From an uncultured Chloroflexia bacterium (GTDB lineage: Bacteria > Chloroflexota > Limnocylindria > Limnocylindrales > CSP1-4): DNA of 64,000 bases. Made by a program: the position numbers and the translations under genes. The notes beneath the pieces were generated by a model, which did no database searches, had not been told where the DNA came from, and saw only the letters and a list, made by a program, of their open reading frames with translations. Positions 13,629 to 57,773 of this stretch are shown here, piece by piece. Within the stretch, counting starts at the first letter, position 1. Each line of letters opens with the position of its first letter. The stretch covers positions 896,001-960,000 of the forward strand of contig CAWHDR010000001.1 of the NCBI GenBank assembly GCA_963828165.1. Direction: 5' to 3'.

Positions 13629-13828
13629 CCTGATCGGGAGGATGGGGCCGCTCCGGGGGGCGGGCAATGGTACGGGGGTCCGGTGCGACCCAGCCGACAT
13701 GCCGCATGCTCCCGCCACCCGCTGGGCGGTGCGGTGGACTCCGGTGTGGCGGATGGTCCAACCGGCCGAGCCGGTTACCCCCGTTCGGTCATTGAGCCCG
13801 TGGGCGCGCGCGATGGAGGATGGCCGCC

Positions 13829-14578
13829 ATGGATGTCATCTCCCGATCCCGCCCGCTGACACGGGCGACGCTCGTCCCGATGATGAGCGGCACGGTGCTT
13901 GGCGCCCTGTTCATCGTCGGCGGCCTCGCCCTCGCCTATGTCGCCTTCGCGACACCCTTCCTCGGCCTGGCGCTGCCATCGGGTCGGCCTGACCCCATCC
14001 AGATCGCGTTCGGCATCACCACCTGGGCTGTGGCGCTGGTCGCGCCCGCTGGGTTCGTCCTGGCCGGCGCCAATCGCCTCGCCCGCAATCTCGCCTCCGC
14101 CCGCGGCCGCACACCGCGCCGGTCGGTCGCGCTGAAGGAGCTCGAGAGCCTGCCCGACGACTTCACCGTGGCCAGCGGGCTGACCCTGGCCGACGGACGC
14201 GGCGTGTCCGAGCTGGTGATCGGCCCGTTCGGTGCTGCCGTGATCCGCGAGCTGCCGCCGTCCGCTGTCACGCGGGTCCAGGGCGACAGCTGGCAGGTCC
14301 GTGGGGCGCGAGGGTGGATCTCGCTCGAGAACCCGCTGGAGCGGGCCACGAGGGATGCTGAACGCGTCCGCCACTGGCTGACCGAAGACGACGACTACCT
14401 CGTGAAGGTGTACGCAGCGGTGGTCGGGCCAGACTCGTCGGTCGCGCGAACCTCGGCCTGTGCGGTCCTCACCCCGGACCAGCTGGCTTCCTGGATCACC
14501 GCGCTGCCGGCGCAACGGGGCCTCACCCCGGGGCGCCACAGCCGCGTTCTTGACCTGGTCCGCGCCGCCGCGCCTTGA
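13829..14578 (+). CDS. Membrane protein with possible NERD-like (nuclease-related) domain
   Basis: Two TM helices, then LPDDFTV...[13 protein letters not shown]...ENPLERA; GGAGG RBS. Confidence 0.6.
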
Positions 14579-14673
14579 CTGGCTGATCCGCGGATCCCGA
14601 CCCGCGTCGCTGCGCGTAGATCGTCGCGCCACTCCCCCCAGCGATGGCGCGAGGCATAGACTTACGGACCGAT

Positions 14674-14751
14674 GGGGGAGTAGCCCAGTTGGTTAGAGGC
14701 GCCGAGCTTATACCTCGGAAGTCGGTGGTTCGAGTCCACCCTCCCCTACCA
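14674..14751 (+). tRNA. tRNA-Ile, anticodon UAU (TAT)
   Basis: Acceptor GGGGGAG/CTCCCCT, D-arm, anticodon arm CCGAG-CT-TAT-AC-CTCGG, T-arm GGTGG-TTCGAGT-CCACC, discriminator A, encoded CCA; TAGACT -10-like box upstream. Confidence 0.93.
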
Positions 14752-14831
14752 AGGAACCCTCGGACATGCGCGCACGTTCCCCGCCTGGACCGTGTGGGTT
14801 GCGCCCTACCTGGGGCGCTCGGACCGCCGCG

Positions 14832-15143
14832 TCAGTCGCCGTTGAGCAGCTTCCCCGCGATGGATTTCAGGTTGAGCGCGCGCGGCCGGAGGCCAGGTGG
14901 CGGGGCGTCGCCGTCGTGCCCGGGGGCACCGTCGCGACCCTCGACGATGGCGCCGCCGGGTGCCCAGGCTCGGGCCGGCAGGGTCGACGCGAAGTCCCGC
15001 TCATCGTCGGTCATGAAGGCGTCGATCGGCAGGTCGTCCGGATCGAACGGCCGGGCCACCGTGGCGACCGGGCCGGGCGGCCGCGCATAGGCCGGGGCTC
15101 CGTAGAGCTTGGGCAACGCGACGTGTTGCTCATCGATGGACAA
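14832..15143 (-). CDS. Hypothetical protein
   Basis: Plausible ORF (LPKLYGAPAYARP...PFDPDDLPI) with host-like codon use. Confidence 0.6.
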   Translation of the reverse strand: MSIDEQHVALPKLYGAPAYARPPGPVATVARPFDPDDLPIDAFMTDDERDFASTLPARAWAPGGAIVEGRDGAPGHDGDAPPPGLRPRALNLKSIAGKLLNGD

Positions 15144-15310: not shown

Positions 15311-15736
15311 TCAACCGAGCAGCGGCCGGACGATCTGGATCGCCGCCACCATGACGAGCCAGGCGATCGGCACGGCGGCGAAGAAGCCCAGGGCCGCGCT
15401 CCAGGCGCTCCGGCGGCGGATCGTGCCAGAACCGGTCGGCTGCGGCACGACGAGGTACGTGACCACGGAACCCACCAGCAGGACCAGGACGGCGTAGCCC
15501 GCCAGCGCGAGCACACGGAGATCGCCGCCCGGGAGGACGGCACCTCGGCTGAGCGCGACGTCGTACACCACGTACAAGGCCGCGAACCCGCTGGCCACGA
15601 TCAGGCTCGAGAGCACCGCCCGAACGACTGGCCGGGGGGCGCGGCGGAACTGTCGCCAGCGCACCTCGGCCCACGAGCGCTGTCGGATGGCGACGGGAGG
15701 TTCAGGCCGGCCAGCGGCACCCGATGGCGTCGTCAT
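15311..15736 (-). CDS. Hypothetical membrane protein
   Basis: Three hydrophobic segments; ATGA overlap with the upstream aminotransferase. Confidence 0.7.
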   Translation of the reverse strand: MTTPSGAAGRPEPPVAIRQRSWAEVRWRQFRRAPRPVVRAVLSSLIVASGFAALYVVYDVALSRGAVLPGGDLRVLALAGYAVLVLLVGSVVTYLVVPQPTGSGTIRRRSAWSAALGFFAAVPIAWLVMVAAIQIVRPLLG

Positions 15737-16971
15737 CCTTCGCCCAGGATCGTCAACCGCCGTCGCGGGGGCAACGTCGTCGGCGTGTGGGCGGCCACGA
15801 GCGTGACCGCCTCGATGAATCGCTCGAGCTCCACCTCCGACGTGAAGAACCCGACGCTGATTCGCAGGGCGTCGAGGTGCGGCACGGTGCGCGCGACGGC
15901 GAAGACCCGGGCACCGAGCTCATCGAGCGCCGCCTCCGCAGGCCAGCCGACGATCCGGAACGTGACGAGGTTTGCCATGTGGTCACGCGGCGTCACGAGC
16001 TCGACCCCGGGGACGGCGGCCAACCGGTCGGCCGCGAGCCGGGCCATGGCGGCGCCGCGCTCGTAGATCCAATCGAGCCCGACGAACATGCTCAGCCACC
16101 CGATCGAACGCGCCATCCCGACGATCGACGGCCGATGGAAGTTCGAGGACTCGAAGCGTCGCGCGTCCCGCCAGCCCACAGCCGCGCCCGCAGGGTCGAC
16201 GGTCTCGAAGGAGAAGAACCCCCCGAACGAGGGCAGCAGGCGATCGCGCACCCCGGGCGCGACGGCAATGGCACCCATCCCCTCCGGGCCGAGCAGCCAT
16301 TTCTGCGCCGACACCGCATAGACGTCGGCGCCGGTTGCCGCCAGCTCGACCGGGATGGCGCCGGCGCCCTGGGCCCCGTCCACGATCAAGAGCGCTCCGC
16401 GCGCATGGGCGATCTCGGCGATGCCGGCGATGGGCACGACCGCGCCGGTCGCCCACAGGACATGCGAGACGGCCACGAGCCTCGTTCGCTCGTCGATCGC
16501 CGCGTCGAACGCGGTCAGCATCGCTTCCTGACTGGCCGCGGCGCCGATATCCACGTACGCGATCTCGATCCCGAATCGTTCGCGCAGGTTGTGGAGGGCA
16601 CCCGTGCCGCCAGGATGCTCGAGTCCGGTCGTGACCGCGCGATCGCCAGCCTTCCAGTCGATCGACCACGCGCCGATGTTCATGCCGTCCGTGGCCGAGT
16701 GGGTCAGGGCGATATCGGCCGCATCGGCGACGAGCACCGCGGCGACCGCAGCGCGGGCTTCGGCCATCCGCTGGAGTGTGTCGAGCCAGTAATCGGGGTG
16801 GGCGCGACCCGTCGTGAGCTCGTACGTCGCGATCTCATTCATCGCGGCAGCCGTCTCGGCGGGAATCGGACCCACGGAACCCGTGTTCAGGTAGATGCCG
16901 GCCTCGAGGGCGGGGAGGGCCGCCCGGACCGCGGCCAGGCGGTCCGCATCAGGCGGGAACGGGGCGACCAC
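15733..16971 (-). CDS. Class V PLP-dependent enzyme (SufS/CefD/EgtE-like)
   Basis: IYLNTGSVGP, SATDG, VDGAQGAG, SAQKWLLGPEG (PLP lysine); GTG start about 16971. Confidence 0.88.
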   Translation of the reverse strand: MVAPFPPDADRLAAVRAALPALEAGIYLNTGSVGPIPAETAAAMNEIATYELTTGRAHPDYWLDTLQRMAEARAAVAAVLVADAADIALTHSATDGMNIGAWSIDWKAGDRAVTTGLEHPGGTGALHNLRERFGIEIAYVDIGAAASQEAMLTAFDAAIDERTRLVAVSHVLWATGAVVPIAGIAEIAHARGALLIVDGAQGAGAIPVELAATGADVYAVSAQKWLLGPEGMGAIAVAPGVRDRLLPSFGGFFSFETVDPAGAAVGWRDARRFESSNFHRPSIVGMARSIGWLSMFVGLDWIYERGAAMARLAADRLAAVPGVELVTPRDHMANLVTFRIVGWPAEAALDELGARVFAVARTVPHLDALRISVGFFTSEVELERFIEAVTLVAAHTPTTLPPRRRLTILGEG

Positions 16972-16989
16972 GGCCGTATGATACCGACG

Positions 16990-17841
16990 ATGTCCGGCCT
17001 GGCCCGTCCCGAGCTCGTCGCAACCACCGAGTGGTTGGCCGAGAATCTGGGCCGGCAGGGCGTACGACTCCTCGATGCGCGCTGGCGACCGGACGGGACT
17101 GGCGTGCAGGTCCACCGGGCCGGCCAGATCCCCGGTGCCCGCTACATCGACTGGCGGGCAGACCTTGCCGACGACGCCGAGGACTCCGACGCCATCCGGC
17201 TGGCAACGCCGGACCGGATCGGCGAGGTCGCGTCGCGGGTCGGCATCGGCGACGGCACGACGGTCGTCATCTACGACGACACCCAGGGGCTGTACGCGGC
17301 GCGCGTGTGGTGGTCGTTCCAGGCCTACGGGCTCGCGCAGGTACGCATCCTCGACGGGGGGTTCCCGGCCTGGCAGGCAGAGAACCGCCCGATCTCCCGC
17401 GGCCTGAACGATGGGATCGAGCTACCCGTCGTCCCGTTCACCCCGCGCGGACCGAACCGCATGCATCTGACGACCTCCGACGTCCGCGCGATGCTCGGCG
17501 CGCCGAGCGTGGCGCTCCTCGACGCGCGAGCGCCGGCCGAGTATCGCGGCTACGAGGGCAACACTCGGCGGCTCGGGCATATCCCGGGCGCAGTCAACGT
17601 GCCGGTCGGCAACATGCATGAATCCGGTAGCCAACGCCTCCGCAGCGGCGACGAGCTCCGCAGCCTCCTGCATGCGGCAAACGTGAGCCGCGGCCGTCGG
17701 ATGGTGGCCTACGACGGGTCAGGGGTGGCTGCGGCGAAGCTGGCCTTCGTCCTGATGCTGCTCGGGCACGACGATGTCGCCGTGTACGACGGCGGCTGGG
17801 CCGAATGGGGGAACCGCCTGGACTTGCCGGTCGACCGGTAG
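16990..17841 (+). CDS. Tandem-domain rhodanese/SseA-like protein lacking the catalytic Cys
   Basis: LLDARW, QIPGA, AARVWW, LDGG, LLDAR..EY.G, GHIPGA, YDGGWAEWG; active-site loop reads YDGSGVAA. Confidence 0.88.
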   Translation: MSGLARPELVATTEWLAENLGRQGVRLLDARWRPDGTGVQVHRAGQIPGARYIDWRADLADDAEDSDAIRLATPDRIGEVASRVGIGDGTTVVIYDDTQGLYAARVWWSFQAYGLAQVRILDGGFPAWQAENRPISRGLNDGIELPVVPFTPRGPNRMHLTTSDVRAMLGAPSVALLDARAPAEYRGYEGNTRRLGHIPGAVNVPVGNMHESGSQRLRSGDELRSLLHAANVSRGRRMVAYDGSGVAAAKLAFVLMLLGHDDVAVYDGGWAEWGNRLDLPVDR

Positions 17842-38078: not shown

Positions 38079-39608
38079 TCAGCCCGACAGGTCGAACCAG
38101 GTCGTCTTGAGCTGCGTGTAGCCATCGAGGGCGGCCATCCCCTTGTCGCGGCCGAACCCCGATTGCTTGAAGCCGCCGAACGGCACGGTGATGTCGGCCG
38201 CGTCGAAGGTGTTCACCCACACCACCCCAGCCCGGATGGATCGTGCCAGTCGATGGGCGCGATTGACGTCGCGTGTCCAGATCCCTGCGGCGAGGCCGTA
38301 GGGCGTGTCGTTGGCGATGGCCAGGGCGTCGGCCTCGTCCTCGAACTCGATCACCGTCAGGACCGGACCGAAGATCTCCTCGCGCGCCACGCGCCAGCCG
38401 TTGTCGACGCCGTCGAGGATGGTCGGGGCGATGTAGAAGCCACCGGTCTCCTCGCGGACCCGCTCGCCTCCGGCGACGACCTGCGCTCCTTCCTCGCGAC
38501 CCAGCGCGACGTAGCCGAGGACCTTCTCGAGCTGCCGCTCATCGACGATCGAGCCCAGCCGGGTGGCGGGATCCAGTGGCTCGCCGGGCGCCAGCTGTCG
38601 ACCGAGAGCCGCGATGCGCGCCACCAGCTCATCGCGCACGCTGCGGTGGACGATGAGCCGGGAGCCGGCGTTACAGGATTGACCGCTGTTGTAGAAGATC
38701 CCCATCCCGATCGTGTCGGCCGCGACTTCGAGGTCCCCGACATCTCCGAGGACGACCTGCGGGCTCTTCCCGCCGAGCTCGAGGGTGATGGCCTTGACGT
38801 CCGTCTCGCCGACCGCGCGAAGGAGCGACCGCCCGACCTCGGTGGAGCCCGTGAACGCGATCTTGTCGACCGCCGGGTGGCGGGCGAGGGCATCCCCGAT
38901 GACGGCACCCGGCCCCGGCACGACGTTGAGGACGCCATCCGGCAGGCCGGCTTCGGCCGCCAGCTCCGCGAGGCGCAGCGCGGTCAGCGGCGACTGGGAG
39001 GCCGGCTTGAGCACGACCGAGTTACCCGTCGCCAGGGCCGCACCGAGCTTCCAGGCGGTGACGATCAGCGGGTAGTTCCATGGCACGATCGCGGCGACCA
39101 CCCCGATCGGCTCGCGGGTCACGAGCGACAGGGCATCCGGGCCGGTCGGGCCGACCTCGCCGTAGACCTTGTCGATCGTCTCCGCGTACCACTGGATGGT
39201 CTTGGCGGCGGAGGGGACGTCGACCGCGAGGGTGTCGCGGATCGGCTTCCCGACGTCGAGCGACTCGAGCAGGGCGAGCTCGTCGCGGTTGGCCCGGATG
39301 AGGTCGGCGAGCTTCAGCAGGATGCGCTTGCGGTTCGCAGGCGATTGATCGGCCCAGCGTCGGTCGTCGAAGGCAGTTCGTGCCGCCTTGACGGCCCTTC
39401 CGACGTCCTCGACATCGCCCTGGGCGACATCGGTGATGTGCCCGCCGTCTCGCCCGGCGATGTCGGCGAACGTCTGGCCGGACGCCGCTGGGACGAACCG
39501 GCCGCCGATGAACGCCTCGTTGCGGGGAGTAACGGCCGCGGCACGAGCTAACCAGTCCGCGGCGGTCGGGCGGTCGCGGTCCGGCGCCGGGGCGGCAGAA
39601 TCGGTCAC
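38079..39608 (-). CDS. Aldehyde dehydrogenase (PuuC/betaine-aldehyde DH-like)
   Basis: PWNYP, FTGSTEVG, LELGGKSP, NSGQSCNAGSR, EEIFGPV, PFGGFKQSG. Confidence 0.95.
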   Translation of the reverse strand: MTDSAAPAPDRDRPTAADWLARAAAVTPRNEAFIGGRFVPAASGQTFADIAGRDGGHITDVAQGDVEDVGRAVKAARTAFDDRRWADQSPANRKRILLKLADLIRANRDELALLESLDVGKPIRDTLAVDVPSAAKTIQWYAETIDKVYGEVGPTGPDALSLVTREPIGVVAAIVPWNYPLIVTAWKLGAALATGNSVVLKPASQSPLTALRLAELAAEAGLPDGVLNVVPGPGAVIGDALARHPAVDKIAFTGSTEVGRSLLRAVGETDVKAITLELGGKSPQVVLGDVGDLEVAADTIGMGIFYNSGQSCNAGSRLIVHRSVRDELVARIAALGRQLAPGEPLDPATRLGSIVDERQLEKVLGYVALGREEGAQVVAGGERVREETGGFYIAPTILDGVDNGWRVAREEIFGPVLTVIEFEDEADALAIANDTPYGLAAGIWTRDVNRAHRLARSIRAGVVWVNTFDAADITVPFGGFKQSGFGRDKGMAALDGYTQLKTTWFDLSG

Positions 39609-40717
39609 GCCGCGTACCTCGCGATCGCGGACTCGTCCAGCACGGCACCCAGGCCGGGTCCCGGCGGCACCCGCAGGACGCCGTCGCGGTCGGGACGGAT
39701 GGGCTCGGCCAGGAACGCGTCGCGACGCTCCGGTGTCCAGCCCGGCGGGTCGTACGGGTACTCGATGAACGGCCCACCACCCACACCGGCGGCCACGTGC
39801 AGGTTCGCGAGCAGACCCAGCCCATTGGTCCAGGTGTGGGGCGTGAACCAGCGATTGCGGGCGAGCGCCAGCTCGGCGACGGTCCGGGTCCGCAGCATCC
39901 CGCCCGCCAGCACGACATCCGGCTGGTAGACGTCAAAAGCGTCCGCATCGAGCGCAGCCAGCGTCTCCACGAACGTCCGGGTCATCTCGCCCCCGGCGAT
40001 CCGGATGCCGGGCGCGGAAGCCCGCAGCGCCGCCAGCCCTCGCAGATCCGTGCCCGCCAGCGGTTCCTCCAGCCAGAGCACGTCGTACGCCGCGAGCTGG
40101 GCGGCGACATCGCGCGCAGCGACGGGATCCAGCGACAGAGCGGTGTCACCGGGCATCCGCCAGCCCTGGTTGAGGTCGACCATGAGCGCCATCGAGTCGC
40201 CAACGGCGGCGCGGGTCGCGGCCACCGCCGCCATCCCGTCGGCCAGTCGCCGCGGATCCAGCCGGATCTTCATGGCGCGAAACCCCTCCTCGCGCAGCCG
40301 CAGCGCAGACTCCGCGCGCGCGGCCGCGGGCAGCAGCGACCCACACGAGGCGTAGGCCGGGATGCCGTCGCTCGATCCACCGAAGAGCGTCGCGACCGGC
40401 AGGCCGGCAACCTGGCCGATGATGTCCCAGAGCGCCGCTTCGAGCGGCCAGTACCGACCGGCATGGAAATCGATCGTCTCGAGGACGCGGACATGGCGGG
40501 CGATCGCGAGCGGGTCCTGCCCGACGAACAGGTGCTCGAATGCATCGAACCCGTCCATCGTGTCGCCTGAGCCCACACCGACGACGCCGTCATCGGTCTC
40601 GACGCGCACGAGCGTGACCGCGAAGGAACGCCTGGGCTCCGGGTCCCACGCGGCCGCGAACGGCGGTTCGAGGGGAACCACGAGTCGCTGCAGCCGGACC
40701 GCAGTGATGCGCACCAC
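39605..40717 (-). CDS. Mandelate racemase / muconate lactonising enzyme family (enolase superfamily)
   Basis: ALWDIIGQ, GFRAMKIR, LMVDLNQGW, WLEEP, AGGE, QPD. Confidence 0.9.
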   Translation of the reverse strand: MVRITAVRLQRLVVPLEPPFAAAWDPEPRRSFAVTLVRVETDDGVVGVGSGDTMDGFDAFEHLFVGQDPLAIARHVRVLETIDFHAGRYWPLEAALWDIIGQVAGLPVATLFGGSSDGIPAYASCGSLLPAAARAESALRLREEGFRAMKIRLDPRRLADGMAAVAATRAAVGDSMALMVDLNQGWRMPGDTALSLDPVAARDVAAQLAAYDVLWLEEPLAGTDLRGLAALRASAPGIRIAGGEMTRTFVETLAALDADAFDVYQPDVVLAGGMLRTRTVAELALARNRWFTPHTWTNGLGLLANLHVAAGVGGGPFIEYPYDPPGWTPERRDAFLAEPIRPDRDGVLRVPPGPGLGAVLDESAIARYAA

Positions 40718-40804
40718 CGCAGTATCGCCGACCAAGCCCCGCTGCCGGGGCGCGTGCCGGCTGCGATACTGTGACCTCCCCGCCTGGCCGTTAGGAACCG
40801 TCCC

Positions 40805-41548
40805 TTGTTGACCGCCCGCGACCGCCCGCCCGAAGAAGCCGCCGAGGACACCTCGTTCGCGCGTGGCTTGCGGGTGTTCCTCACGATCGCCGACCGCGGC
40901 GAGATCCGCGCCGACGAGCTCGCCACGCTGCTCGAAACGCCACTGTCGACCGTCTACCGCTATCTGCGCACCCTGACGGAGTTCGGGTTCGTGGAGCGGA
41001 TGGAGGGCGGTTACGCGCTCGGTCCGCGGCTGCATCTCACCGGCGGCGCCACGGTGAGCAGCGAAGAGCTCATCCGTCACGCGGACCCGGTCCTGCGCAT
41101 GCTCGTCGACGAGGCGGGCGAGACCGCGGTGATCGCGCGCCGCGTCGGCCTGACCGCCGTCTGCCTGCATGAAGTGCAATCCGGTCATGCCCTGCGGGTG
41201 ACCTGCGAACCGGGCTCCGCCACGCCGCTCGTCTCGGGAGCGATCGCCAAGGTCCTGCTCGCGTACGCCCCGCCGGAGGTCCAGGACGAGGTGCTCGCGG
41301 AGGTCTCGAACGCCAAGACGCTGCGTCGCGAGCTCGGGTCGGTCCTGGAAGACGGGGTCGCTCGGAGTGAGGGAGAGTTATTCTCCGGCACCGTGGACAT
41401 CGCCGTTCCCATCCTGCGGGACGACGGGATCGTGGCCGCGATCGGCGTCGTCGCCCCGGCTGAGCGAGCGACGCTGCCATGGCGCGTGCGTGCGAGCCGA
41501 CTCCTGGCCGACGGAGCCGCTGCGATCACCGGGGCGCTGCGCGAATAG
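40805..41548 (+). CDS. IclR family transcriptional regulator
   Basis: ARGLRV, PLSTVYRYLRTL, GETA, GAIAKVLLAY, AVPI. Confidence 0.9.
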   Translation: MLTARDRPPEEAAEDTSFARGLRVFLTIADRGEIRADELATLLETPLSTVYRYLRTLTEFGFVERMEGGYALGPRLHLTGGATVSSEELIRHADPVLRMLVDEAGETAVIARRVGLTAVCLHEVQSGHALRVTCEPGSATPLVSGAIAKVLLAYAPPEVQDEVLAEVSNAKTLRRELGSVLEDGVARSEGELFSGTVDIAVPILRDDGIVAAIGVVAPAERATLPWRVRASRLLADGAAAITGALRE

Positions 41549-54803: not shown

Positions 54804-55388
54804 GTGTCAGCATCAGTGCTCTACATGTCAATGTCCCTCGACGGATACATCGCCGGTCCGAACGACGGACCGGACAACCCCGGCGGCGACGGCTTCGACC
54901 GGCTGCACGAGTGGATGTTCATACCGGGCACATATGACGTCCCGCTGTCCGGCCCGGGCCGGGACCTGTTCGACGAGATGGACGCGACCGTCGGTGCCCT
55001 GCTGGCGGGTCGGCGTACTGTGGAGCAGGTCGATCATTGGGGCGGAGACAATCACGGCTGGCCGATCTTCGTGCCGAGCCACCGGCCGCCGGGTCCATCC
55101 GTGGCGAACTATCCCTTGGTGACGTATGTGGCCGACGGGATCGAGAGCGCGATGGCGCAGGCGAAGGCTGCAGCCGGAGATAGAGTCGTCCTCGTGCACG
55201 GTGCGTACACGGCACAGCGCGCGCTTCAGGCCGGCGTCCTGGATGAGTTGCAGATTCATCAGATTCCCGTGCTGCTCGGTGGTGGTCGTCGATTGTTCGA
55301 TGTCTTGCCGTCGCGCGTCGAGTTGGACGTCGTTCGGGTCATCGACACCCCTAAGGCAACCCACATCCGCTACCGCGTCCGCCGCTGA
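54804..55388 (+). CDS. Dihydrofolate reductase / RibD-C family protein
   Basis: MSMSLDGYIAGP, DGIESA, HQIPVLLGGGRRLF; GGAGG RBS. Confidence 0.9.
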   Translation: MSASVLYMSMSLDGYIAGPNDGPDNPGGDGFDRLHEWMFIPGTYDVPLSGPGRDLFDEMDATVGALLAGRRTVEQVDHWGGDNHGWPIFVPSHRPPGPSVANYPLVTYVADGIESAMAQAKAAAGDRVVLVHGAYTAQRALQAGVLDELQIHQIPVLLGGGRRLFDVLPSRVELDVVRVIDTPKATHIRYRVRR

Positions 55389-55929: not shown

Positions 55930-56316
55930 ATGAAGATCACCGCGTCAGCGCTGTCACTCAACGTCGCCGACGAGCGGGCGTCCGCGCAGTTCGCCCGTGA
56001 CTACCTCGGATTCGTCGAGGAGATGGCCGATGACGGATTCGTCTCGCTGTCCAGACCGGACGCTGGCTTCAACCTCATCTTTCTGCGCACAGGGCTGAAG
56101 ACCTTCAAGCCGGACCACCTGCGCGGCCACGCCGCGGACGGCCTGTTGGTGGTCTTCGTCGTTGACGACGTCGACGCCGAGTTCGCCCGGCTGCAAGCCG
56201 CGGGCGTTCCCATCACGACACCGATCGAGACCGAACCGTGGGGTGAGCGCTACTTCCAGATGAGCGACCCGAATGGGGTTGTGATCCAGCTGGTGAAGTG
56301 GATGACCCGAGCATGA
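55930..56316 (+). CDS. VOC/glyoxalase family protein
   Basis: SLNVAD..AS..F...LGF, FVVDDVDA, EPWGERYF...DPNG. Confidence 0.92.
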   Translation: MKITASALSLNVADERASAQFARDYLGFVEEMADDGFVSLSRPDAGFNLIFLRTGLKTFKPDHLRGHAADGLLVVFVVDDVDAEFARLQAAGVPITTPIETEPWGERYFQMSDPNGVVIQLVKWMTRA

Positions 56317-57773
56317 CCGAGCATGCAGTGGTTATCGCCGGCGGCGGCCCGACCGGGATGATGCTCGGAGCCGAGTTGACGCTCGCAGGCGTCGACGTCG
56401 TCATCGTTGAGCGGCGCGTGGACAAGGTTCGCATCCAGCCCGGTGCGCTCGGCCTTCATGCACGCACGATCGAGGTGTTCGACCAGCGCGGCATCGCCGA
56501 CCGCTTCCTCGCCGAAGGCAAGGCCATGCAGGTGATGGGGTTTGCCGGCGTGCATTTCGACATCAGCGCGTTCCCGAGCCGCCATCCCTATGGCCTTGCA
56601 CTGATCCAGAAGCACAGCGAGCGGATCCTTCTCAACTGGGCCGAGGAGCTCGGCGTCCCGTTCCTTCGTGGCGTCGAGGTGACGGGATTCGCCGAAGACG
56701 CCTCCGGCATCCACGTCGCGCTCAGCGACGGCCGGTCCTTGCGGGCACACTACCTCGTGGGCTGCGACGGCGGCCGCAGCCTTGTCCGCAAGGCGGCCGG
56801 CATCGCGTTCCCGGGCTCGGATCCGACGCTGAGCCATCTCCTCGCCGAGGCTGAGCTCACAGGCGAGCCGGAGTGGGGCCTCCGTACCGACGAGATCGGC
56901 ACCCACGCGCTCAGCAAAACAGAAGACGGCAAGGTCGGGATATTGGTGACCGAACGCGGCGTCGGCACCGTAGAGCCCACGCTCGACGATCTGCGCGAGG
57001 CGCTGATCGCCCACTACGGGTCGGACTACGGCGTCCGCAACCCGAGCTTCATCACGCGGTTCACCGATTCTACCCGGCAGGCCGAAACCTACCGCAAGGG
57101 CAGGGTACTGCTCGCCGGCGACTCGGCTCACATCCACTACCCGGCCGGTGGGTTCGGCATGAATCTCGGCATCCAGGATGCAGTCAACCTCGGGTGGAAG
57201 CTCGCGGAGGTGGTCAAAGGAACCGCGCCCGAGGCGCTGCTCGACACATATCACGCCGAGCGGCATCCGGTCGCCGCTAGTCTCATCCGCTACCCCATGG
57301 CGACTGTTGCCCTCGGCCGCCACGACGACCGCACGAAAGCACTGAACTCGATCGTCACCGAACTCGTGAACATGGACGAAGCGCGGAAGACCATCGCCGG
57401 CCAGATGTCGGGCCTCGCCATCCACTACGACCTCGGCGACGGGCACCCATTGCTCGGGCGCCGGATGCCCGATCTCGAGCTCGGTACCCCCGGTGGTCCG
57501 CTGCGGGTCTTCGACCTGCTCCACGATGCCCGGCCGGTGCTGCTCAACCTCGGGGATTCCAGCGCCATCGACATCACGGCTTGGGCCAATCGGGTTCGGC
57601 TGGTCGACGCCACATCTGAAGGCCCATGGGAGCTTCCGGTCCTTGGTCCTGTTCCTGCTCCGGCGGCCGTGTTGATCCGGCCCGACGGATATGTCGCCTG
57701 GGTGGGGGACGAGACCCAGCCGGGGCCCGCTGGCGCGCTTACCACCTGGTTCGGACCGCCTACGGCGGCGTAG
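56313..57773 (+). CDS. FAD-dependent aromatic monooxygenase (Rox/PheA-TfdB-like)
   Basis: GGGPTG, VGCDGGRSLVRK, GRVLLAGDSAHIH.PAGGFGMNLGIQDAVNLGWKLA, LIRPDGYVAW. Confidence 0.92.
   Translation: MTEHAVVIAGGGPTGMMLGAELTLAGVDVVIVERRVDKVRIQPGALGLHARTIEVFDQRGIADRFLAEGKAMQVMGFAGVHFDISAFPSRHPYGLALIQKHSERILLNWAEELGVPFLRGVEVTGFAEDASGIHVALSDGRSLRAHYLVGCDGGRSLVRKAAGIAFPGSDPTLSHLLAEAELTGEPEWGLRTDEIGTHALSKTEDGKVGILVTERGVGTVEPTLDDLREALIAHYGSDYGVRNPSFITRFTDSTRQAETYRKGRVLLAGDSAHIHYPAGGFGMNLGIQDAVNLGWKLAEVVKGTAPEALLDTYHAERHPVAASLIRYPMATVALGRHDDRTKALNSIVTELVNMDEARKTIAGQMSGLAIHYDLGDGHPLLGRRMPDLELGTPGGPLRVFDLLHDARPVLLNLGDSSAIDITAWANRVRLVDATSEGPWELPVLGPVPAPAAVLIRPDGYVAWVGDETQPGPAGALTTWFGPPTAA

Follow-up and report, generated by a model that had tools for sequence, protein, structure and literature searches.

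The window analysed here is a stretch of 64,000 nucleotides (nt) from an uncultured member of the Limnocylindrales (Chloroflexota; CSP1-4), and its only tRNA gene, called by ARAGORN on the forward strand at 14674-14751 (Table 1), encodes a tRNA-Ile with a genomic UAU anticodon. We consider it highly probable that this gene belongs to an order-wide system in which AUA is decoded independently of TilS, the UAU tRNA being its sole reader. The match to the Rfam model RF00005 spans model positions 1-71 of 71 and scores 61.5 bits (gathering score 29, E = 1.6e-12). The anticodon loop reads C-T-TAT-A-C, the discriminator base is A and the CCA end is encoded at 14749-14751, just as a sequence-only reading of this DNA had described. 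In its details the cloverleaf is somewhat less clean than that reading had it: according to ARAGORN the D stem has only three pairs, the D arm of the own subclade carries one extra base in comparison with relatives, and pair 1-72 is a G.U wobble.

Comparison of 30 orthologues revealed an invariant CTTATA loop, and 10 of the 22 predicted pairs have been kept through two-sided changes, namely all five of the anticodon stem, three of the T stem and two of the acceptor stem. The body of the tRNA varies down to 76% identity among related loci. The invariant loop together with the two-sided pair changes excludes a sequencing error or a pseudogene, and the gene is real. The G1.U72 pair (14674 and 14745 of the window), which is unusual atop the acceptor stem of elongator tRNAs, occurs in 27 of the 30 orthologues and also in the own elongator tRNA-Met (G000:C5:185104-185178). 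Position 38 (positions 37-38 lie at 14712-14713 of the window) is a pyrimidine in 119 of 120 loci among the matches listed (T 83, C 36, A 1); in TAT tRNAs from elsewhere in the Chloroflexota the base is A38. The pyrimidine might tune codon affinity and may be a part of what holds down misreading of AUG.

The anticodon was followed through the relatives by several searches. BLAST with the window tRNA gave a match in 39 of 41 relatives (own genus and the second family of the order), and 28 of the 29 fetched loci are tRNA-Ile(tat), the exception, L034, being a match to a tRNA-Val. All 30 loci taken from a search of the class with a TAT-tRNA pattern were called tRNA-Ile(tat) by ARAGORN, as were 120 of 120 loci among the matches listed in a scan of 185,579 species genomes. 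Overall, TAT stands in 178 of 179 related loci (29, 30 and at least 120 among the matches listed), which rules out the single-base error that the earlier reading had allowed for. Records with the same tRNA include, among the matches listed, Candidatus Limnocylindrus, Candidatus Aquidulcis and 'Limnocylindrales bacterium'. Three loci filed under Binatia, a Patescibacteria group and Verrucomicrobiia (L083, L136 and L149) carry a tRNA-Ile(tat) of the Limnocylindrales type in DNA of 68-72% GC, and these contigs are probably mis-binned or mislabelled. Two loci of Candidatus Saccharibacteria (L076 and L123, 35-44% GC) have a different tRNA-Ile(tat) of their own.

The distribution of the UAU tRNA and of TilS was compared in an even draw of 201 genomes of the class, in which the own order comprises families f1 and f2, fitting CSP1-4 and Limnocylindraceae, respectively, and the sister families are f3, f4 and f5. 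The genomes of the order are mostly incomplete metagenome-assembled genomes, many of them 90-97% complete. The TAT-tRNA pattern was found in 57/60 genomes of f1 and 6/7 of f2, and in 0/66 of f3, 0/66 of f4 and 0/1 of f5; the reversed pattern, used as a control, gave 0 in all families. TilS, counted at E ≤ 1e-5, shows the opposite distribution, with 0/60 in f1 and 0/7 in f2 against 59/66 in f3, 59/66 in f4 and 1/1 in f5, that is, 0/67 in the own order versus 119/133 in the sister families. No TilS over the cut-off was found in any of the 41 relatives; 16 of them gave matches of 20-24 bits in frames of 470-645 amino acids (aa), which are taken to be other PP-loop enzymes.

The lysidine-dependent tRNA-Ile2(CAU) follows TilS. 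Among 68 genomes of the order, the CAT-tRNA pattern occurs twice in 55, once in five and three times in eight; the eight extra matches are one duplicated initiator, three sequences that ARAGORN does not call as tRNAs and four that are not tRNA-like judging by the matched letters. At least three CAT tRNAs were found in 54/66 genomes of f4. Each of five TilS-positive relatives has three CAT kinds: the initiator, one with a GGGCCC acceptor and one of GGCGGAG/GGCTGGG type. The GGGCCC-acceptor kind carries C4-G69 and C5-G68, the pairs that Ikeuchi and coworkers are said to have identified in 2005 as determinants of E. coli TilS. In the own genome the initiator and the GGCGGAG kind are kept and the GGGCCC-acceptor kind was not found; the canonical pair of tilS and a CAU tRNA with C4-G69/C5-G68 was not found in the own order. 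The split between UAU tRNA on one side and tilS with a third CAT tRNA on the other is clade-wide and not a gap in one assembly. In the TilS-positive sister families (G049:C2:493576-494240, G043:C1:768200-769012, G044, G055 and G052) the elongator-type CAT tRNA is followed directly by tilS, and the initiator tRNA precedes them closely; tilS does not adjoin its presumed GGGCCC-type substrate.

The own assembly comprises 3.31 Mb in six contigs with 70% GC and is 87.7% complete, the window being C1:896001-960000. ARAGORN listed 56 tRNAs. Ile(gat), located in the rRNA operon, and Ile(tat) are among them, and just two have a CAT anticodon. One of these two is the initiator, recognisable by its A1.A72 mismatch and the three G-C pairs that close its anticodon stem; the other is the elongator tRNA-Met, starting with GGCGGAG and differing by 1 nt from the f4 CAT tRNA beside tilS. 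TIGR02432 gave 0 matches in the own genome and PF01171 nothing above 15 bits. Both searches proposed on the basis of the sequence alone, for tilS and for tRNA-Ile2(CAT), thus came out negative in this genome. The genome also encodes a tRNA-SeC(tca). The ARAGORN calls of 90-100 nt include that at G000:C1:1715771-1715869, and several over-long or odd calls, such as an Arg(gcg) of 97 nt, a Pro(cgg) of 100 nt and a tRNA whose anticodon has four bases, are likely false positives in high-GC DNA.

The isoleucyl-tRNA synthetase (IleRS) of the own genome (G000 C1) has 1106 aa and a DUF5915 C-terminus (PF19302, 1e-30), and no match to zf-FPG_IleRS, that is, no zinc finger, was found in it. It is closest to MupA/MupB-type enzymes and to P. 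megaterium IleRS2; among solved structures the best are P. megaterium IleRS2 and Thermus IleRS, with 8c8w as the best PDB match. From these comparisons the enzyme is classed as type 2 (eukaryote-like). DUF5915 was found in 199/201 class genomes, in 147/151 genomes of the phylum sample and in every TilS-less lineage tested. Type 2 being phylum-wide, it predates the switch; the type of IleRS was therefore rejected as the trigger, being permissive and not sufficient.

Residues that track TilS were looked for in an alignment of the C-terminal halves of IleRS2 from 21 TilS-less and 45 TilS-positive Chloroflexota, with the TilS-less set drawn from three lineages (own order, f27 and f56). Seven rows were added by tblastn for genomes in which the longest open reading frame (ORF) lay in the wrong frame; no row could be obtained from the truncated locus L384. 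Own position 801 (P. megaterium W725) separates the two groups better than any other column of the region, with Trp in 49/49 TilS-positive and 0/24 TilS-less sequences, added rows included. It is replaced by R/S/T/G in f1, D/T in f2, S/A/A in f27 and R/R/R in f56. Position 729 (D659) is Asp in 45/45 TilS-positive and 1/20 TilS-less sequences, and position 813 (Y737) is Tyr in 43/45 and 0/21, the latter having F in 18, L in two and C in one; the added TilS-positive row G070 has N at 729 and E at 813. Alignment to the solved structures showed D, W and Y in both the Thermus enzyme and P. megaterium IleRS2. In P. megaterium IleRS2, W725 lies four residues after R721 and D659 eight residues after F651. 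R721 and F651 have been assigned to recognition of A35/U36, and W725 goes unmentioned in the text of that 2026 structural paper (PMC13752280). Own R1040 (PmR964, yeast R999), the reader of the N34 carbonyl, and own R797 are invariant in TilS-positive and TilS-less enzymes alike.

Tentatively, and with slightly more doubt than confidence, we propose that the Asp-Trp-Tyr trio of the helical anticodon-binding domain (P. megaterium D659, W725 and Y737) may be the lysidine-recognition element of bacterial IleRS2, hitherto unassigned, which would decay whenever TilS is lost. On the basis of this covariation, D729, W801 and Y813 would serve lysidine recognition in the sister families and drift once lysidine is gone. 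The trio would then be the type-2 counterpart of W905/R865 in type-1 IleRS. This signature is a new lead; the available parts of two recent structural papers hold no statement on the trio residues.

ATA codons, the presumed clients of the tRNA, are rare. In the own genome at most 240 of 799,593 codons are ATA (0.30 per 1000; 2092 ORFs filtered by GC content at third codon positions, GC3), compared with 64/200,214 in the congener G024 of f1 (0.32 per 1000), 212/346,588 in the TilS-positive G049 of f4 (0.61 per 1000) and 20/6,589 in loci of Limnocylindrus in f2 (about 3.0 per 1000). The sequence-only reading had named two in-frame ATA codons in the window: that at 56940-56942 stands, while 54921-54923 does read ATA and lies in none of the GC3-filtered ORFs. 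The meaning of ATA was approached by masking it as X in the 200 ORFs of the own genome with at least one ATA and aligning them to two genomes by tblastn. With 1.2 Mb of a TilS-positive genome as the target, 63 ORFs gave matches and 23 ATA sites were aligned (V7, I4, L2, M1, two gaps and seven others), the baselines being 35% for ATC to I and 39% for ATG to M. With 0.8 Mb of a congener, the numbers were 28 ORFs and 13 ATA sites (I4, V4, M2 and three others), with baselines of 67% for both ATC to I and ATG to M. The 36 aligned sites, some common to both comparisons, are a small sample, and they would fit ATA as Ile at weakly constrained sites rather than as Met.

In the wider phylum, a draw of 351 Chloroflexota genomes of at least 85% completeness contained TilS in 317. 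It was not found in f1 (19/19, own genome included), f2 (4/4), f27 (3/3), f56 (3/3) and five single genomes; for the own order this means TilS in 0/23. The TAT pattern was present in f1 (19/19), f2 (4/4), f27 (2/3), f56 (2/3) and five TilS-positive genomes. Of these last five matches, those of G230, G324 and G529 are confirmed as tRNA-Ile(tat) and the other two are not tRNAs. Redundant intermediate states with both TilS and tRNA-Ile(tat) thus exist in the phylum. As judged from these gene contents, the switch would have occurred in three Chloroflexota lineages, three being a number of lineages and not a count of independent events. In the TilS-positive G529 (L283 = G529:C241), tRNAs lie at 1319-1393 and 1470-1544, a GGGCCC-acceptor CAT tRNA of Ile2 type being situated 76 nt upstream of the tRNA-Ile(tat) with a near-identical anticodon arm and variable loop. 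This pair looks like the tandem-duplication-plus-C34T intermediate of Taniguchi's model. The class and phylum tallies include genomes flagged as unpublished (G102, G122, G126, G131, G139, G145, G156, G182, G189, G264, G374, G391, G458 and G521), publication of which needs the depositors' permission. All are TilS-positive rows from sister families or outgroups except G521, one of the three f56 genomes behind the claims on TAT, missing TilS and IleRS in that family; the genome of the f56 IleRS row L342 is also flagged as unpublished.

The neighbourhood of the tRNA gene is also conserved in most f1 genera. Pfam detected only a class-V aminotransferase and a weak SH3 match in the five ORFs flanking the tRNA, and no integrase among these five, so that the earlier remark on the lack of an integrase nearby holds for the ORFs scanned. 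In these genera the tRNA is bordered by homologues of the upstream ORF and of three downstream ORFs with 37-86% protein identity, the 252-aa upstream ORF itself adjoining it with 37-78% identity. In the reduced genomes of f2 the same neighbours do not flank the tRNA. The conserved order across f1 genera and the lack of an integrase indicate that the locus is an old chromosomal site, which on gene order would have been vertically inherited.

Table 1. Features of the window connected with the tRNA-Ile(UAU) gene.
Feature	Position	Strand	Basis
tRNA-Ile(UAU) gene, 78 nt, encoded CCA	14674..14751	+	ARAGORN; Rfam; covariation
Anticodon TAT (U34 A35 U36)	14709..14711	+	ARAGORN, sequence, conservation in relatives
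TAGACT, hexamer with weak likeness to a -10 box, 12 nt before the tRNA	14657..14662	+	Read from sequence; unsupported as promoter
Upstream neighbour, 252-aa ORF, no Pfam family (context only)	13820..14578	+	GC3-filtered ORF
Downstream neighbour ORF (context only)	14832-15143	-	GC3-filtered ORF
Downstream neighbour ORF (context only)	15311-15736	-	GC3-filtered ORF
Downstream neighbour, class-V aminotransferase (context only)	15733-17115	-	GC3-filtered ORF, Pfam
In-frame ATA, codon 215 of 491 in ORF 56298-57773 (presumed client of the tRNA)	56940..56942	+	
In-frame ATA, codon 76 of 527 in ORF 39605-41188 (presumed client of the tRNA)	40961..40963	-	

The following course of events would account for these observations. 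The common ancestor of the order would have lost tilS and the lysidine-dependent tRNA-Ile2(CAU), and the rare AUA would since have been read by direct U34-A pairing with the genomic UAU anticodon of the sole AUA-reading tRNA. This tRNA would be charged by the type-2 IleRS, whose R1040 could form a hydrogen bond to the O4 carbonyl of U34; in yeast IleRS, U34 could bond Arg999 via O4 (Chen 2024, PMC11685878). With no lysidine to recognise, the near-invariant Asp 729, Trp 801 and Tyr 813 would have decayed. The gene and its conservation, the reciprocal distribution of the UAU tRNA against tilS and the third CAT tRNA, the type of IleRS and the covariation of its residues are observed; charging with Ile, the chemical state of U34, the avoidance of AUG misreading and expression we infer from sequence. 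The suggestion in the sequence-only reading that a high-GC lineage may use TilS-independent AUA decoding is thereby supported and would extend to the whole order.

Several points weigh against this picture. In yeast IleRS the unmodified UAU transcript is charged 40-fold worse than the modified tRNA (Chen 2024, PMC11685878), so efficient charging in the own lineage is not assured. The -10-like box with which the gene had been credited matches TATAAT at 4/6 positions without a -35 element, and a promoter consensus scan of 14300-15000 gave 0 sites. Public runs hold small parts of the stretch only (≤0.14 of sampled words). A contig of the RNA-library run X20 covers 14669-14751 with 0 differences, a run guessed to be RNA shows one difference in the same region and a DNA run two, and the RNA-labelled contigs, which stem from relatives and may have DNA as their source, give no measure of transcription, tRNA ends or expression level. 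The 87.7% completeness of the own assembly means that absence there alone proves little and that the case rests on the clade, where relatedness inflates all tallies. ATA was overcounted by taking ORFs from their first start codon, so that the own figure is an upper bound. ATA sites are less conserved than ordinary Ile sites (I at 4/13 against 67% at ATC in the congener), and 3/36 of them face Met. Finally, D/W/Y is still present in G254 and G321, two genomes in which no TilS match and no TAT tRNA was found; their tilS may be missing from the assemblies, or else the rule is not without exceptions.

Among the other explanations, a CAT-to-TAT base error, or a tRNA of a mobile element or phage without a core role, would suit the rarity of such genes and the irregular D arm of the window copy. 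The persistence of TAT in related loci of such divergent body, the compensatory stem changes, the conserved gene order and the integrase-free flanks speak against it; conservation has already refuted this explanation, and we give it practically no weight. It is also hardly credible that a canonical system is merely unassembled, or its TilS too divergent, with the UAU tRNA redundant as in Lactobacillus casei or Cyanothece. The incomplete own genome leaves some room for it, and G230, G324 and G529 do hold both TilS and tRNA-Ile(tat). Nevertheless, TilS is missing from all genomes of the order in both draws and present in most genomes of the sister families, no third CAT tRNA is available in the order as a substrate and the IleRS signature that tracks TilS is lost. 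Equally implausible is a reading of AUA as Met, with the UAU tRNA derived from elongator tRNA-Met and still charged by MetRS as in some mitochondria. In its favour, besides the Met sites mentioned above, the acceptor stem GGGGGAG/CTCCCCT agrees with that of the own elongator tRNA-Met at 12/14 positions, including G1.U72. The body of the widespread form is, however, closest to sister-family Ile2(CAU) (anticodon stem 8/10, T arm 16/17, D arm 15/17), and the origin of the tRNA gives a mixed signal, its body appearing Ile2(CAU)-like and its acceptor stem elongator Met-like. Met stands at 1/21 non-gap sites and 2/13 sites in the two comparisons, versus 39% and 67% at ATG, and Ile plus Val make up 11/21 and 8/13; ATA to ATG being a single transition, the few Met sites are expected anyway. 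Moreover, C34 is the main MetRS determinant (PMC12514573).

A different question is whether U34 is modified by another enzyme, for example to pseudouridine, giving both IleRS recognition and selectivity for AUA over AUG. We regard this as unlikely, though it deserves serious attention. Yeast IleRS2 prefers the pseudouridine-modified anticodon 40-fold over unmodified UAU (Chen 2024, PMC11685878), and a bare U34 should misread AUG under the wobble rules. On the other hand, the tRNA of Mycoplasma mobile is unmodified at U34 (Taniguchi 2013, PMC3575796), MnmG over the cut-off was found in 0/201 class genomes, and the own genome gave no match to MnmG or MnmE over the cut-off, no further candidate enzyme having been sought. 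The missing MnmG/MnmE make the usual xm5U chemistry at U34 unlikely, and the U34 tRNAs for Lys, Glu, Gln, Leu, Arg and Gly are presumably without xm5U as well. Absence of MnmG was dismissed as a correlate of the switch, since MnmG was not found in TilS-positive and TilS-less families alike and is background.

TilS-independent decoding of AUA by the UAU tRNA has one of its closest counterparts in Mycoplasma mobile, which likewise lacks tilS and tRNA-Ile2(CAU), has a genomic TAT tRNA as the sole AUA reader and has replaced the wobble-base-linked IleRS Trp of TilS-bearing species; there, U34 is unmodified and ribosomal discrimination has been shown (Taniguchi 2013, PMC3575796). Its IleRS, however, is of type 1, with the Trp (E. 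coli W905) in the zinc-binding domain (PMC3575796), whereas in the type-2 IleRS of Limnocylindrales the covarying Trp lies in the helical anticodon-binding domain. M. mobile is also a reduced AT-rich parasite, in contrast to a whole order of free-living bacteria of 70% GC. Bifidobacterium and Neorickettsia share the lack of TilS, a tRNA-Ile(TAT) and an eukaryote-type IleRS (PMC3575796) and belong to other phyla. Eukaryotic cytoplasmic tRNA-Ile(UAU) is also encoded by a UAU gene and served by a type-2 IleRS that shares the invariant Arg (own R1040) and the Gln (own Q1037), but its anticodon is modified to pseudouridine-A-pseudouridine (PMC11685878). The canonical TilS/tRNA-Ile2(LAU) system solves the same codon problem and is in use in the sister orders, where tilS stands beside two CAT tRNA genes, while the own order has neither tilS nor a CAU tRNA with C4-G69/C5-G68. 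In a suppressor of a Bacillus subtilis tilS deletion, a UAU tRNA-Ile rescues AUA decoding without lysidine (Kohrer 2014, PMC3919564); that tRNA is a laboratory mutant of tRNA-Ile1(GAU) (PMC3919564), whereas the own gene is natural and anciently fixed.

As a kind, TilS-free AUA decoding is already known; the order-wide, free-living and high-GC case is unusual. tilS is treated as essential and has been reported from about 98% of annotated bacterial genomes (PMC12514573), and in 2013 nine species from three clades were known as exceptions, most of them parasites or symbionts with reduced genomes (PMC3575796). The class Limnocylindria comprises the families P2-11E, QHBO01 and CSP1-4 (2.4-3.2 Mb, 68% GC) and the reduced Limnocylindraceae (1.3 Mb, 63% GC), CSP1-4 and Limnocylindraceae being sister lineages (PMC13212565). 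The word tRNA is absent from this 2026 study of the class, and our literature search found no paper pairing Limnocylindria or CSP1-4 with tilS or lysidine.

The Limnocylindrales would add to these exceptions an order of many free-living, high-GC species that abounds in soils and lakes and has been without tilS since its origin, and two further Chloroflexota lineages are likewise without it. They offer natural replicates for how a bare or differently modified U34 avoids AUG, and specific IleRS2 residues are indicated as candidates for lysidine recognition by type-2 enzymes. Genomes of this sort will be scored too low by tools that count on tilS or a third CAT tRNA in every bacterium. If the proposal on the trio is true, an IleRS sequence without it would by itself predict TilS-independent decoding of AUA. 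TilS-less decoding would then be a repeated development among uncultured, free-living bacteria, with at least three lineages in the Chloroflexota, and not confined to reduced parasites.

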